Virus record (IMG/VR): IMGVR_UViG_3300045016_000151
Location: 82,078 to 146,077 of that record
From: a virus
Lineage: Duplodnaviria > Heunggongvirae > Uroviricota > Caudoviricetes
Strand: one strand, 5' to 3'
DNA length: 64,000 nucleotides
This document shows, piece by piece, positions 27,493 to 57,654 of this stretch. Position numbers and translations under genes: made by a program. The number at the start of each line of letters is the position of its first letter. Position 1 is the stretch's first letter. The notes below the pieces were generated by a model that made no database searches, was not told where the DNA came from, and saw nothing but the letters and a program-made list of their open reading frames with translations.

Positions 27493-27759
27493 ATTACAAG
27501 AGAACCCGTTACACCACGGTGAGGAACTTCAGCTCATACAAAGAAGCGAGTGGGAGAAGAATGTGACCAAGATATACTGAGGAAGTTTGTGGCTATCTTT
27601 CCGAACGTAATTCAAAGCCATCACATTATTCGTTCGCACCACCAGCAAGTATGCAACTCAAACAGACCCAGGACGGCACGCTTCTTGTCTAATAACGGTC
27701 GGGTAGAGGCCAATAGAGAAATGACGGGATAAAACAAAAAGCTGGGTAAGCTCGGTAAT
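27493..27759 (+). ncRNA. rnpB: compact RNase P RNA candidate
   Basis: GAGGAACTTCAGCT (27521-34) pairs AGCTGGGT (27740-47) as P4 with bulged U; P2 CCCGTTA/TGACGGG; AGAGAAAT and AACAAAAA in CR-IV/V positions; P15 loop with GGGTAG. Confidence 0.75.
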
Positions 27760-28890: not shown

Positions 28891-29022
28891 GCGGGTCGAT
28901 AGATGTTAGTTATCGGTTAAAGCATATATCTCAAAAATATAACACTCTAGGTTCAAGTCCTAGCGCGTATGAAAATACGTAGTAGCTAAATTAAAAACAC
29001 TGACGTCGCTTAAATTACCCGC
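28891..29022 (+). ncRNA. YrlA-type Y RNA candidate 1
   Basis: Terminal helix GCGGGT(C)GAT/ATTACCCGC with bulged C; T arm, then closed acceptor-like hairpin (GAAA loop), then degenerate D loop. Confidence 0.6.
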
Positions 29023-41964: not shown

Positions 41965-42193
41965 TTACGAGCCGAAGTATATCGTTATCAAAGAACTGTG
42001 TGTCGTAGGTCCGAATCCTACTCTCTCCACCCTGAAAGATAGTTGGTCCCTTTTGTTGAATGATTAAATTCATTTTATGGTATAGGACATGACAATATAA
42101 AAGAAGCCTCCTATAACTATCTTTCTGGTTGGGAGAGATAGCTCAGTCGGTAGAGCAACAGTATAAAGATGGTATATGACCATTTGCTCGTAA
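41965..42193 (+). ncRNA. YrlA-type Y RNA candidate 2 / circularly permuted tRNA-Phe-like gene
   Basis: tRNA 3' half (41995-42029) precedes 5' half (42132-42162); acceptor GGAGAGA/TCTCTCC; terminal helix TTACGAGC(C)GAA/TTTGCTCGTAA with bulged C. Confidence 0.75.
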
Positions 42194-51043: not shown

Positions 51044-51583
51044 ATGGAAAGCAAAAGATTGTTATTTCAACGTGAAATAGAAACATCTATCAACGATATT
51101 CGGGATTACAGTGATTTTATATTTGCAGTTGGTTTGGATATAAAGGAACTCACACCAGAGGTGTTGAAACTAGATATTATACCAACAATGATAATTTCAA
51201 CATCCGCGTTTAACGCATTGGCCAAAATGAATATCCCAAAAGATTTTCTGGATAAATTAAAACAGGCTTCAATGTATACTTGTCCTTGGACTGAAAATAC
51301 GTATTTCGGTACATTACCGATAGCAGTGGCAACATTTAATAAAAACAATTATAAAGACTTATTAACGGATTATCAATTAGACACCGAATTTCATCTCAGT
51401 ATGAATGGCGGCGATGTTAAGAAATTACTTATTCCAAACCTTGTAGAATTATCATTTATAGGGCATGGTTATACGTCTGCAACACTTCCCAGCGATGGTT
51501 CCCATACACTAGTACTTTGTACGATTGAATTACCTAATAAAGATTTTGCTATCTGTTTAACTTATGCATGGCACAACAAATGA
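51044..51583 (+). CDS. hypothetical protein
   Basis: AAGG SD. Confidence 0.65.
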   Translation: MESKRLLFQREIETSINDIRDYSDFIFAVGLDIKELTPEVLKLDIIPTMIISTSAFNALAKMNIPKDFLDKLKQASMYTCPWTENTYFGTLPIAVATFNKNNYKDLLTDYQLDTEFHLSMNGGDVKKLLIPNLVELSFIGHGYTSATLPSDGSHTLVLCTIELPNKDFAICLTYAWHNK

Positions 51584-52281
51584 TCAGAATATTTCAAGTT
51601 GGTGGTAGTGTTAGAGATTTAATATTACGCGTTAAGTCAAAAGATATTGATTATGCAGTAGTAGCAGTTTCTTGGGAAGAAATGAGAAATTATATTCTTG
51701 CCAAAGGCAAAATATATCTCGAGACCCCAGAATACTTCACTATCCGTGCTCATATAGATGGTTTTGGTGATGCTGATTTTGTGTTATGTCGAAAGGATGG
51801 TAACTATTCAGACGGTCGTAGACCTGATACTGTTGAGTTGGGCACATTGTATGACGATCTAGCCAGACGTGATTTCACAATGAATGCTATTGCGATCGAC
51901 ATGCAAGATCCAAAGCGTCCTTTTATTGACCCGCATGGTGGGTTGATTGACATACAAAATAATCTCATTAAATGTGTTGGTAAGCCCGAAGATCGCTTCA
52001 ATGAAGATGCTTTACGCATGCTACGCGCGTTAAGATTTGCCGTAACCAAAAAAATGCAGATCGACTTATCAGTAGAAGCATGTTTTGGTAATCGTGAGTT
52101 ATTAAACAAATTGAATAATCGTATTTCTTGGGAACGTAAAAAAGACGAATTGTTTAAAATGTTCAAAACAAGTACAACACGAACTTTTGAATTGTTTGAT
52201 CGATACCCATCAATGCGCGACGTATTACTTTCTGATGACAAACCTTTGTGGCTTGAACCAACTTTACGAGCACGCCCATGA
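51580..52281 (+). CDS. short tRNA nucleotidyltransferase (CCA/poly(A) polymerase family)
   Basis: VGGSVRD, DID, DLARRDFTMNA, EDALRMLRALRF; no HD domain. Confidence 0.88.
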   Translation: MIRIFQVGGSVRDLILRVKSKDIDYAVVAVSWEEMRNYILAKGKIYLETPEYFTIRAHIDGFGDADFVLCRKDGNYSDGRRPDTVELGTLYDDLARRDFTMNAIAIDMQDPKRPFIDPHGGLIDIQNNLIKCVGKPEDRFNEDALRMLRALRFAVTKKMQIDLSVEACFGNRELLNKLNNRISWERKKDELFKMFKTSTTRTFELFDRYPSMRDVLLSDDKPLWLEPTLRARP

Positions 52282-54222: not shown

Positions 54223-54555
54223 ATGAAATTCCACATACCAAAAGAAAACATACCTTATCGTATTATGCGAGATATTGAAATAGAATTAGTGGGTCTTGAT
54301 AGTGATAGTCGAAAGAAAATGCAGACGCGTGGATTTCAAGAGACATTTCACACTGATCCTTTTTACTTACATGCGAAAGATATAATAAAAATCACTACTT
54401 GGAGCAATAAACAGGAATATGTGAAGATTCGTATATTATCCTCTAGTGATAAACTATATGAAAAATTATGTGGATATGTTCGAGATCCTTCGAATGATCC
54501 AAGTTCAACATTTGACTTTTTAAATGATGTTGAAATAGAAGAAATTCCGGTATAA
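54223..54555 (+). CDS. hypothetical protein
   Basis: ATG 4 nt after tRNA. Confidence 0.6.
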   Translation: MKFHIPKENIPYRIMRDIEIELVGLDSDSRKKMQTRGFQETFHTDPFYLHAKDIIKITTWSNKQEYVKIRILSSSDKLYEKLCGYVRDPSNDPSSTFDFLNDVEIEEIPV

Positions 54556-54585
54556 GATTATGTGGCAGAGGCGACTCTACCGCAC

Positions 54586-54614: not shown

Positions 54615-55120
54615 AATTTGGGCTCGACAGGAATCGATTGAATGAGATGTAGTATAAATGCATAGCGTCAGTGAACCGATGACGTAAAATCCGTTTAAAC
54701 AATAAGTGCAGAAGAAAAATCTGACATGACTTTTGAACAGGCTTTGGCACTAGTCGAAGTACCTGTAGCCGTAATGGCCTAATCGCTGACAAGAGAACTC
54801 GATAGCAAGGCCCCAATTGCTATGAGTGCGATAAACGGGGATGTAGGCCACTTGTCCGAATACAAGTAAGTCCTAAGTATGTAGTTGTAGCAGACGACCG
54901 ACTAAAAATACAACTAACTATGTGAATGAATTTTTATTAAATCCATGCAAGACCGGGGTTCGACTTAGTATTAGGTCGCTTATATAGAAATATATATGAC
55001 AAAAGAAAGCTCAAACGGCGAAACCCCTGCTAATAGCGAGGTAACACCGTCGGGTATGTAAAGAAATTTAACAGCTCGCTATCGACTTATAGAACTCTAA
55101 AGTATAAAAACTATGAGTTA

Positions 55121-55543
55121 CTAGGATAGTTGGAAAAATTCTTTTTCAAATTGTTTTTTTCGTCGTATTTGTTCTTTGGTGTATTTACCGTTGCGAACAG
55201 TCAATTTAGCATAATATCTTATAATGAATTTCATCCGACGTGATTTCTTTGGATGTCTAATATAAGGCAATAATTTATGCATTACGTCTATTGCATCAGC
55301 ACGAGTTATTTTCCAACTATATGCAATCATGTAATTTCGCTTTTGACGGCCATGATTACAAATAATTCCGCCAAAATATCGTTGTAACGGTAATAAAATT
55401 TCTAAACACGTATTAGCTACAGATAACACAGGTGATCTGTACTCTCCGGAGTGATTATGTGTTAATGTAACTGAACCCTCACCATCGACGATGCCGGCGG
55501 TCCAACTATAAATGCTTTCTATCTTCGTAGTCTTTTTGGACAT
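55121..55543 (-). CDS. single-motif LAGLIDADG homing endonuclease, antisense within intron
   Basis: WTAGIVDGEGSV motif; AGGAG SD before MSKK. Confidence 0.88.
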   Translation of the reverse strand: MSKKTTKIESIYSWTAGIVDGEGSVTLTHNHSGEYRSPVLSVANTCLEILLPLQRYFGGIICNHGRQKRNYMIAYSWKITRADAIDVMHKLLPYIRHPKKSRRMKFIIRYYAKLTVRNGKYTKEQIRRKKQFEKEFFQLS

Positions 55544-55567
55544 GGTAATCTTTTCTCCTATATCCAA

Positions 55568-55596
55568 AATATACTAAAAGATAAGGGAATAGTCAA
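55568..55596 (-). promoter_or_regulatory. antisense promoter for intron endonuclease
   Basis: TTGACT-17 nt-TATATT on minus strand; -35 box overlaps P7 3' strand. Confidence 0.6.
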
Positions 55597-55709
55597 GTCT
55601 AAAATGAAAATTTTAGAGTTACTGCCCCGCGAGTCCACCAAGGAGGTTTCTTTTCGTAGTACGTTATACTTCCTCCGTTCAAAATAAATAAAGGAAAACG
55701 TACCAAGAC

Positions 55710-55784
55710 TGCGGGGTACGTTGGAAATGGTCCCCACGAGAGTCTCATAAGCTCTGCATGCAGGTTCAAGTCCTGTCCCCGCTA
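55710..55784 (+). tRNA. tRNA-Met/Ile2(CAT), atypical D arm
   Basis: Acceptor TGCGGGG/CCCCGCT (1:72 mismatch), CT-CAT-AA loop, good T arm; weak D stem. Confidence 0.65.
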
Positions 55785-55787
55785 CAA

Positions 55788-55895
55788 ATCGGCCGGATCG
55801 AGATTGTTATCATAGATTCGACTTCTATTTCTCCCGCCAAGAAAAAATTTGGGAGAAAGCGCAATGGACGCACTCAGTCTCACAACATTGCCGAT
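55788..55895 (+). ncRNA. YrlA-type Y RNA candidate 3 (108 nt)
   Basis: ATCGGC(C)GG/TTGCCGAT bulged-C helix; T arm, acceptor TTCTCCC-GCCA...GGGAGAA, D arm in permuted order. Confidence 0.75.
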
Positions 55896-56178: not shown

Positions 56179-56529
56179 ATGACAAAAGAACAATACAATC
56201 AACTAAAATCCGAGCTTAAAATCTTAGCTCAATTTCTTCATTACGACAACTATAATTCACGTGCCTACCAATCACAAAATGCCGGTGGCAAAAAGAAACC
56301 AAAAGAAATACCAGAACAATTAGAAAAGCAATTTAAGGAATTAAATATAAGTCCTTGGAGAGCTCACTATGAGTATAGACATAAACACATATTTATGTCT
56401 TTACAACGTGGTAAAAAACGTGAACAAATCGAAAGACCAAGACAAGGTAACGAACCCGATGAAAATTACATCAAAAAACTTGTGGAGCAGTATGAAACAG
56501 TTGAACAGACTGTATGTGTTAGTGCGTGA
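56179..56529 (+). CDS. hypothetical protein
   Basis: GGAG SD; overlaps the PTH2-like gene. Confidence 0.65.
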   Translation: MTKEQYNQLKSELKILAQFLHYDNYNSRAYQSQNAGGKKKPKEIPEQLEKQFKELNISPWRAHYEYRHKHIFMSLQRGKKREQIERPRQGNEPDENYIKKLVEQYETVEQTVCVSA

Positions 56530-56791
56530 AGACTTAAATCTTACATACGCTGGAGTTCAAGCTGGACATGCAGTAGCAAAATTTATGTTAGAATTCCCAG
56601 GTATATGGTGTAATACTACACTTATATATTTGCGGATAAAGAATGAGGATAAGCTTATAGAATGGCGTGACAAATTAATTGTCAGAGGTATTCCGTATGC
56701 TTTATTTAGAGAACCTGATTTAATGAATCAGGCAACTGCCGTCGCTGTATTGAGCGATGGTAATATATTTAAAAATGTAAAATTATTGTGA
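56492..56791 (+). CDS. PTH2-like peptidyl-tRNA hydrolase homologue
   Basis: LYVLVR.DL....AGVQAGHA, F.EPD....TAVA. Confidence 0.65.
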   Translation: MKQLNRLYVLVREDLNLTYAGVQAGHAVAKFMLEFPGIWCNTTLIYLRIKNEDKLIEWRDKLIVRGIPYALFREPDLMNQATAVAVLSDGNIFKNVKLL

Positions 56792-57079
56792 CAGTAAAAA
56801 ATGAAACTATGCAGTTAAAACCACCAAATGGGCCGGGGATCCATAGCCTCGTTAACCTCCTTTGGGCTGGCGTGTTGCCCATTAACCTTATTGGTTAGCT
56901 ATGAACAATCATAGTACTGTTCGCCAGAACTGCATTCCAGAATGATTTAGGTTAATTGCGAAAGCCCCTGGAACAGGGGAGTCCTACGCATACTTACCCG
57001 TCGTAGGTGAGCCTGTCTAATTATGGGTTAGACCCAGGGTCGATCCAAAAGGTAAGCTCGATCGAAATTAACTATTGTC
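56790..57079 (+). ncRNA. unclassified ornate RNA candidate (about 290 nt)
   Basis: At least nine helices including crossing pairs and a CTTACC/GGTAAG kissing loop. Confidence 0.6.
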
Positions 57080-57150
57080 TGCGTGGCCGAGAACGAAATA
57101 AGCACTAGTCTCTAAAACTAGTTACACGGGGTCGTTCCCCGTCGCAGACA
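57077..57150 (+). tRNA. amber-anticodon tRNA (CTA) with non-canonical D/T loops
   Basis: GTCTGCG/CGCAGAC; CTAGT-CTCTAAA-ACTAG; T loop GTCGTTC; no GG in D loop. Confidence 0.75.
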
Positions 57151-57155
57151 CTTAT

Positions 57156-57483
57156 TCCTCTGTGGTGAAATGAAAAGAGATGTATATTTGTTACGTATTA
57201 ATATACATTACTAAGTCACTAGATTGAATTAGTAGGTGACAGCATCGAGTTACCAGTATAGACTGTTCTTTATGGTCAAGTTCAGAGCAAGTGTATTGGA
57301 AGAATAACTAGGATGAAGCGATTAAACCAATTGTCATGCGACGAACGTTTAGTTGCGTAGCGGCTGAATATTCAATTGAAAATTAGAATGGGATCTTTAC
57401 TACTCCCTGTCGAACGCTTACAAACGGAACTGACTGTCAGTAGACTAAAAGTAATGCTGCAGGTTTGAGTCCTGCCAGAGGGA
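57156..57483 (+). ncRNA. expanded/interrupted tRNA-like RNA (328 nt)
   Basis: Acceptor TCCTCTG/CAGAGGG, T arm GCAGG/CCTGC, CATTACT/AGTAATG helix enclosing about 237 nt of structured insert. Confidence 0.65.
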
Positions 57484-57654
57484 TAAATTTTTATCCGGAC
57501 GGCGTATTATTCTCTCGACGCCTAATAAATATGGGGAGATTATCAGTCCTGTCATAAACAATTCCGCTCAATGAGCACCGGAGCCATTTGATAGGACTTT
57601 TGCATTATATATGGCTCCGCCACGATTACAAAAAACTTTATATCAGGAGATATA

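Follow-up and report, generated by a model that had tools for sequence, protein, structure and literature searches.

A probable Ro60-partner Y RNA of the YrlA type with an encoded CCA in the tRNA array of a 215-kb phage

The locus and its genomic surroundings

The element described here occupies positions 55788–55895 (plus strand; 108 nt, with predicted ends) of the window, the 64,000-nucleotide stretch of phage DNA analysed, to which positions refer unless a contig handle precedes them. The phage record comprises 215,016 bases and carries 38 tRNA genes, an intron-split tmRNA and a tRNA nucleotidyltransferase gene of the CCA-adding family (51568–52281, plus strand; PF01743; phrog_2244, E 4e-44), the product of which is only 237 aa long. 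The element lies on the same strand as the tRNA array, just upstream of the ribosome-binding site of a 56-codon ORF. It is preceded by an atypical CAT-anticodon tRNA (55710–55785, plus strand), which was missed by ARAGORN, scores 18.7 bits with the Rfam tRNA model, below the cut-off, and has its discriminator at 55784, three bases before the element. This tRNA is the probable co-transcript whose 3' processing would free the 5' end of the element. Its U1/U72 mismatch is initiator-like, but the three G-C pairs in the anticodon stem are missing. A stretch about 90 nt upstream of it complements its leader and acceptor 5' strand over some 11 bp (55622–55717); this pairing wins in the predicted fold and may be a switch or an intron-related pairing.

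Farther upstream, the tmRNA (54618–55640) has a T loop split by an intron-like insert and a CCA-bearing 3' end near 55485, and an ORF that carries the PHROGs label HNH endonuclease (55121–55567) is found on the opposite strand within the tmRNA region. Upstream of the tmRNA, a copy of the phage's recurring GGTATAAGA motif (54549–54557) is the nearest promoter candidate for the unit containing the element; a scan for sigma-70 promoters and terminators gave chance-level results only. Downstream, 600 nt from the element, lies the gene for a 99-aa protein (56492–56791; hydrolase in PHROGs) with a Q-GHA motif, which we take to resemble that of type 2 peptidyl-tRNA hydrolases. It is followed by a tRNA with a CTA anticodon of the amber suppressor type and an odd T loop (57077–57151; labelled Pyl by ARAGORN) and by a probable tRNA (57157–57486) in which a structured insert of some 250 nt interrupts the region near the anticodon and both halves of which were seen by eye.

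Structure of the element

The minimum free energy structure of the element is a permuted cloverleaf of −29.1 kcal/mol. Its energy advantage over shuffled sequences is modest (z −2.1; 7 of 200 shuffles were equally good), and pair probabilities are mostly 0.7–1.0 in all five helices (terminal, upper, T, acceptor and D), with 0.47–0.65 for outer pairs. An earlier note on this DNA had listed the same five helices at the same positions, and the minimum free energy fold agrees with that list.

The two ends of the RNA pair in a terminal helix (55788–55793 with 55890–55895) that forms part of the predicted Ro60-binding helix. The 5' strand of the latter (55788–55798) has a bulged C at 55794 and the sequence GCCGGAT, a variant of GNCGAAN; the GCCGGA variant is frequent in RNAs adjoining viral Ro60 genes. 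Compared with the consensus GNCGAAN(0-1)G, GCCGGATCG deviates in its spacing and at the first A. The 3' strand (55888–55895) is a tail found also in the Y RNAs that precede the phage's Ro60 gene, where it likewise closes the structure. The two G-U pairs past the bulged C have a probability of only about 0.01 in the folding model, and the bulged helix described in the earlier note therefore stands by homology, not by predicted energy. Above it, a 7-bp upper stem (55800–55806 with 55875–55881; pair probability about 0.8 for the 5' strand) takes the place of the anticodon stem, and is followed by TTATC (55807–55811), which corresponds to the conserved YUAY motif of YrlA and constitutes the entire variable loop.

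The T arm (55812–55828) consists of 5 bp and a 7-nt loop, its closing pair being A-U rather than G53-C61. It runs directly into the 7-nt acceptor 3' strand (55829–55835), a discriminator G (55836) and an encoded CCA (55837–55839). An A-rich linker of 11 nt (55840–55850), which would serve as the 3' trailer of one half and the 5' leader of the other and whose last base is a U at −1, leads to the acceptor 5' strand (55851–55857), which forms seven Watson-Crick pairs with 55829–55835. A G73-U−1 pairing is also possible (probability 0.59 in the folding model). A cut by RNase P is predicted 5' of G 55851, by analogy with published work on Mycobacterium smegmatis YrlA and on bacterial RNase P (PMC4201824; PMC11143913). 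The acceptor is followed by a D arm (55858–55871) with a 1-nt connector, a 3-bp stem (55859–55861/55869–55871) and a 7-nt loop in which GG is kept; the GCG/CGC stem proposed earlier is where it was placed, but the arm is non-canonical.

The tRNA core is degenerate. Bases required for the elbow can be read in place (GG in the D loop; U54, U55, C56 and A58 in the T loop), but a single base replaces U8-A9 between acceptor and D arm, the D loop is two bases short, positions 15 and 48 are A and C with no Levitt pair, and A53-U61 stands where all 25 training RNAs have G-C, even though the search demanded a T stem and not that pair. The D- and T-stem sequences conserved in YrlA are not kept either. 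Since U8, the Levitt pair and G53-C61, all conserved in YrlA (10.1101/312249), are gone, the L shape of the element may be weak. U8 is likewise missing in other members of the subtype without a variable arm, so part of this drift is a trait of the subtype. In these Y RNAs (L007, L225, L226, L241, L244, L257, L284 and others) a T-stem mismatch at 50:64 or 51:63 is frequent and a GC-rich hairpin often replaces the D arm; the element instead has a perfect T stem.

Assignment to the YrlA-type Y RNAs

The phage encodes its own Ro60 (G000:21897–23558), full length and on the same strand as the element, which matches Deinococcus radiodurans Rsr with E 1e-119 and vertebrate Ro60 with 1e-106 and keeps the GWSH-D-LRL-H stretch and the D-S-S metal motif. 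The gene is 116 kb from the element, or about 99 kb the other way if the genome is circular; published YrlAs lie within 4 kb of a Ro60 gene. RNAs directly upstream of the phage Ro60 gene share the head and tail of the element, the head taking the form G-Y-C-G-R, 8–10 bases, TTATC. Two sister Y RNAs lie on the plus strand of the window: one (41967–42191) has a long acceptor insert and ACC, not CCA, and the other (28891–29022) has an acceptor closed by a tetraloop and, like the element, begins 3 nt after a tRNA.

Inspection of 80 viral Ro60 loci revealed dozens of RNAs with the same head and a tRNA-like body. Their common structure covaries, with 96.7% of cells paired and 19 of 21 pairs changed on both sides (none of 500 shuffles was as high, and slid controls gave 38–47% paired), figures that are biased in favour of the structure because the set was picked by a structural scan. 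In the relatives the terminal helix is 100% paired, with both strands changing. With the element included, a MAFFT alignment was not good enough for counting pairs outside the T stem, and pairs were therefore counted by an anchored script.

A covariance model (R1) was built from 25 RNAs, none from this phage, although two of them had been found by a pattern derived from the element; a second model (R2) was rebuilt without those two from 21 RNAs, all reached via the Ro60 neighbourhoods of other viruses. R1 matches 55788–55895 end to end as the best hit in the whole genome (35 bits, E ~5e-5). With R2, the element is the top match in the window and is covered at full length (model positions 1–128; 35.3 bits, E ~1e-5). 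Most relatives score 42–93 bits with the same model, against 35 for the element, and the Rfam YrlA model (RF02553; gathering cut-off 69 bits) gives no match at the element up to E 10. These scores indicate that the element is a divergent copy, and the lack of an RF02553 match means that it is not filed under RF02553 itself. An exact-word scan of viral contigs and blastn against annotated phages found no sequence homologue, only the upstream tRNA being matched. A search for the orthologous locus in related phages through the neighbouring proteins yielded nothing beyond the same phage and loci that were distant and unrelated, the copies in Logan being identical. A related 215-kb phage with a 73% identical Ro60 (P0005) exists.

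The element shares with the YrlA family of RF02553 (Salmonella YrlA, PDB 6CU1, and mycobacteriophage YrlAs) its architecture, size, YUAY, T loop and D-loop GG, and carries a variant of the 5' Ro60 motif; it differs in the absent Rfam score, in D- and T-stem sequences that depart from the conserved ones, and in missing U8 as well as the Levitt pair. Its acceptor has 7 bp, in contrast to the closed 6-bp acceptor of Salmonella YrlA. A close parallel in layout, M. smegmatis YrlA (Chen et al. 2014, PMC4201824; Wang et al. 2018, 10.1101/312249), likewise has the T arm before the D arm, a Ro60 stem where a tRNA would have its anticodon arm, and a 7-bp acceptor. However, that RNA is 147 nt long rather than 108, its gene adjoins rsr whereas the element is 116 kb away in a tRNA array, and the element has no variable arm and a degenerate D arm.

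The YrlA reading put forward in the earlier note thus gains from the presence of Ro60 in the genome and from full-length matches to independent models. The element is very probably a Ro60-binding YrlA-type Y RNA and the partner of the phage's own Ro60; binding is what membership of the family would predict, and fold and motif come from sequence and covariation. We classify it as a YrlA-type Y RNA that lacks a variable arm, the permuted order of YUAY, T arm, acceptor and D arm being present. Taken by itself, the locus is an unremarkable representative of a known kind. It also illustrates that many phage Y RNAs escape Rfam and that phage Y RNAs need not adjoin Ro60.

Part of this setting is known from Thermus phage phiLo, which, like the phage studied here, encodes Ro60 alongside phage Y RNAs (Yrl1/Yrl2; PMC12135203). 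For PNPase, Y RNAs act as a tether or gate of Ro60, and in phiLo the Ro60 and Y RNAs bind host PNPase and damp its activity (PMC12135203). The phiLo Y RNAs bind Ro60 and recruit PNPase (PMC12135203); a difference is that in the present phage several Y RNAs are dispersed among tRNA genes. The portion of the phiLo report consulted describes neither RNase P processing nor a CCA end (PMC12135203).

Rarity and recurrence of the encoded CCA

The element contains the sole canonical TTCRA-loop T arm in the 215-kb genome with an acceptor partner within 45 nt downstream, and the combination of T arm and acceptor is expected 0.05 times per simulated genome. The earlier note had described it as the only tRNA-like element besides tmRNA with an encoded CCA, and the survey bears this out: CCA is encoded in 0 of the 38 ARAGORN tRNAs and at the 3' end of the tmRNA. 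C74 follows the discriminator in 38 of 38 tRNAs, a count that the end calling of ARAGORN may favour, and in none does it run on to CCA.

An unselected scan of viral sequences for heads followed immediately by a T arm, with the acceptor end left free, listed at least 48 distinct sequences, at least 26 of which were classed as permuted RNAs by script and by eye. Among the matches listed, RCCA directly follows the acceptor in 5 of 16 with a 7-bp acceptor (L007, L008, L241, L284 and L330) and in 0 of 10 without one, an enrichment with a binomial P of 1e-5 to 1e-7. Two of the five, L007 and L008, had first been found by an RCCA pattern and were recovered in the unselected scan; excluding both leaves 3 of 14 among the matches listed. 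Two further distinct RCCA examples, selected for RCCA, adjoin Ro60 in alphaproteobacterial genomes. RCCA is rarer, yet present (L157, L175), in the variable-arm RNAs near viral Ro60 genes. Across nine RCC-bearing examples, in which the purine at 73 was partly a selection criterion, all seven acceptor pairs vary and covary, and position −1 is always a pyrimidine. The 3-nt linkers of two RCCA relatives may be too tight for RNase P.

Recovery of the subtype from a DNA pattern with no protein prior leads back to Ro60, which was found within the locus in 25 of 40 loci among the matches listed. Three further records carry Ro60 35–130 kb from the subtype pattern (distant copies in G007, G009 and G010), so that other phages, too, have such RNAs far from Ro60. 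Two of these, G009 and G010, are large phages in which Y RNA head motifs form several clusters 35–130 kb from a single Ro60 gene.

Other viral Ro60 genes have unpermuted Y RNAs nearby, with the normal tRNA order and the Ro60 helix as a hairpin replacing the anticodon arm (L062:2808–3232, L101:2742–3035, L162, L167, L184, L195, L212, L214, L236, L254, L264 and L279, many with a 3' NCCA). A 3' NCCA is encoded in 8 of 15 unpermuted viral Y RNAs of this class, and their topology equals that of the element's predicted cut product at the acceptor end. This class supports the value of a free CCA end, without saying for what. Together, the RCCA subtype and the unpermuted CCA class indicate that an open acceptor end may have been selected repeatedly.

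It is new that RCCA recurs as an encoded feature of the subtype lacking a variable arm, that the element sits in a tRNA array far removed from Ro60 and that the processing enzymes may be encoded by the phage; the kind of RNA was already known, as was the cut-and-CCA form, published for M. smegmatis YrlA. A literature search found no paper describing an RCCA subtype without a variable arm; a 2020 review (PMC10870794), outside the coverage of that search, may mention it.

A model for maturation and function

The job of the tRNA-like module in YrlA is an open question in the literature (PMC4201824; 10.1101/312249). For M. smegmatis YrlA, whose acceptor also has 7 bp, cleavage by RNase P occurs both in vivo and in vitro and is followed by trimming and formation of a CCA end (PMC4201824; 10.1101/312249); opening plus CCA had been seen in this one species and was judged exceptional. 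There CA is added enzymatically, whereas the element encodes GCCA in full. Bacterial RNase P measures the 12-bp stack of acceptor plus T stem, and the GGU of its L15 pairs with the RCC of the substrate (PMC11143913). Judged from its sequence, the element presents the features of such a substrate: a 7-bp acceptor on a 5-bp T stem, G+1, a pyrimidine at −1, a 3' RCC and an unpaired leader. Production of the acceptor as a closed loop for opening by RNase P/Z is likewise a feature of the permuted tRNA genes of algae and archaea, as summarised in 10.1101/312249; according to that account these tRNAs are ligated at the anticodon arm and decode, while the element has a variant Ro60 motif and no anticodon. 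The possibility that the element itself is a permuted decoding tRNA was ruled out, as it lacks an anticodon.

These observations lead us to propose the following model. The element would be co-transcribed with the tRNA array, as its position suggests, and released when the preceding tRNA is processed. Its two ends would then pair into the helix that, by analogy with the family, is bound and protected by Ro60. The body would present a tRNA elbow and the 12-bp acceptor-plus-T stack to the host RNase P, or to a small RNase P RNA of the phage, whose L15 GGU would pair with the encoded GCC; cleavage would fall 5' of G 55851, as shown for M. smegmatis YrlA. Exonucleases would presumably remove the A-rich trailer as far as CCA. 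What remains would be an uncharged tRNA look-alike in two pieces, held by Ro60; with a predicted −31.9 kcal/mol, these pieces should remain base-paired to each other. For Ro60, this product could serve as a tether to, or a gate for, host enzymes of RNA decay or repair, PNPase among them, and its CCA end would confer the stability of a mature tRNA, in analogy with the D. radiodurans RYPER and with phage phiLo. The encoding of CCA has a reason in this scheme: as long as the acceptor loop is closed there is no free 3' end to which CCA could be added. If the element is a Ro60-binding Y RNA, its opening in vivo to a CCA end is likely; the whole account, from Ro60-partner Y RNA through opening by RNase P to a CCA-ended two-piece RNA that tethers or gates Ro60, we regard as moderately likely.

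The phage may supply the ribozyme itself, since an RNase P-like RNA (27493–27759, plus strand), which has no match in Rfam but in which P1, P2, a bulged P4, P15 and P16 can be traced by eye, keeps GGU at the L15 position (27701–27705). The earlier note had proposed cleavage at 55839/55851; in the model a single cut 5' of 55851 suffices, and the end at 55839 would be expected from exonucleolytic trimming, as in M. smegmatis. More broadly, a recurring subtype in viruses and some Alphaproteobacteria seems to encode an RNase P anchor, and another class seems to obtain a free CCA through the normal order. Opening is not general, since 11 of the 16 relatives with a 7-bp acceptor among the matches listed are without RCCA.

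Alternative readings and the question of charging

The element could instead function as a closed Ro60-bound Y RNA that stays uncut like Salmonella YrlA, its 7-bp acceptor and GCCA being leftovers of tandem tRNAs or mere loop sequence. Most YrlAs and most viral relatives do have a closed acceptor, an origin from dimeric tRNAs is the published model, the weak D arm may spoil recognition by RNase P, and six of the seven acceptor pairs are identical to those of the phage's tRNA-Val(TAC). However, a recent tRNA leftover sits poorly with 38 phage tRNA genes of which none encodes CCA, and with D and T arms far drifted from any tRNA beside seven Watson-Crick pairs and a GCCA that are exact; moreover, RCCA recurs on unrelated acceptor sequences, which may themselves reflect independent recent origins from host tRNA pairs with an encoded CCA. 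An uncut RNA is on this evidence unlikely. A decaying, redundant copy with no current job would account for the loss of U8, the Levitt pair and G53-C61, for the low model score and for the failure to find an orthologue in the related phages searched, in a phage with at least seven Y RNA candidates. Yet pairing is complete in the terminal, upper, acceptor and T helices, the swapped A53-U61 included, and the absence of U8 in other members of the subtype makes drift partly a shared trait; decay is thus very improbable. That the structure arose by chance in AT-rich spacer or in debris between tRNA genes is barely credible: the modest folding z (−2.1) and the lack of an Rfam match could be read this way, but the expectation of 0.05 per genome for T arm and acceptor alone and the end-to-end match to the independent model R2 effectively refute it. 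A metagenome pattern scan, swamped by chance matches and used mainly as a negative control, shows what chance yields, since some 115 chance matches of a looser pattern mostly have 0–3 T-stem pairs.

A different role for the opened RNA would be as an aminoacylated species, or mainly as a CCA-bearing decoy drawing host enzymes that attack tRNA ends. Synthetases that ignore the anticodon require G3:U70 (Ala), A73 (Leu) or a long variable arm (Ser) (PMC9976931). The element has G3-C70, G73 and a 5-nt variable loop, with neither an anticodon nor the G−1/C73 of histidine tRNA; alanine-type charging was ruled out by G3-C70. The acceptor part of bacterial serine identity is present (G73, C72, G2-C71 and purine4-pyrimidine69), but only that part, and serine identity depends mainly on the long variable arm (PMC9976931), here reduced to 5 nt. 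A relative with G3:U70 (L008), the unpermuted Y RNAs of viruses that possess a genuine 3' NCCA and the large tRNA and RNA-repair kit of the phage speak for charging or a decoy; against them, the RCCA-bearing relatives share no acceptor identity set, and no evidence names a target enzyme. This reading is quite improbable. The two-piece, CCA-bearing product suggested in the earlier note is plausible, given the M. smegmatis precedent (PMC4201824) and the enrichment of RCCA in relatives, but its description as potentially chargeable is poorly supported: the element has G3-C70, G73, a 5-nt variable loop and no anticodon, and its RCCA-bearing relatives have no acceptor identity in common. The decoy role suggested in the same note is speculative.

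A more speculative combination, to which we likewise give little credence, is a self-contained line in which the phage's mini RNase P RNA would open the Y RNA at RCCA and Ro60 would present an anticodon-less, CCA-ended decoy that absorbs defence enzymes targeting tRNA ends. The decoy would perhaps be weakly serylated, and the unpermuted viral Y RNAs with a 3' CCA would perhaps be a second route to the same particle. Within the set, judging by its sequence, the best candidate for charging is the RNA of L008 (1993–2092, minus strand), an RCCA relative that combines the G1-C72, G2-C71, G3:U70 and G4-C69 of the alanine signature with G73.
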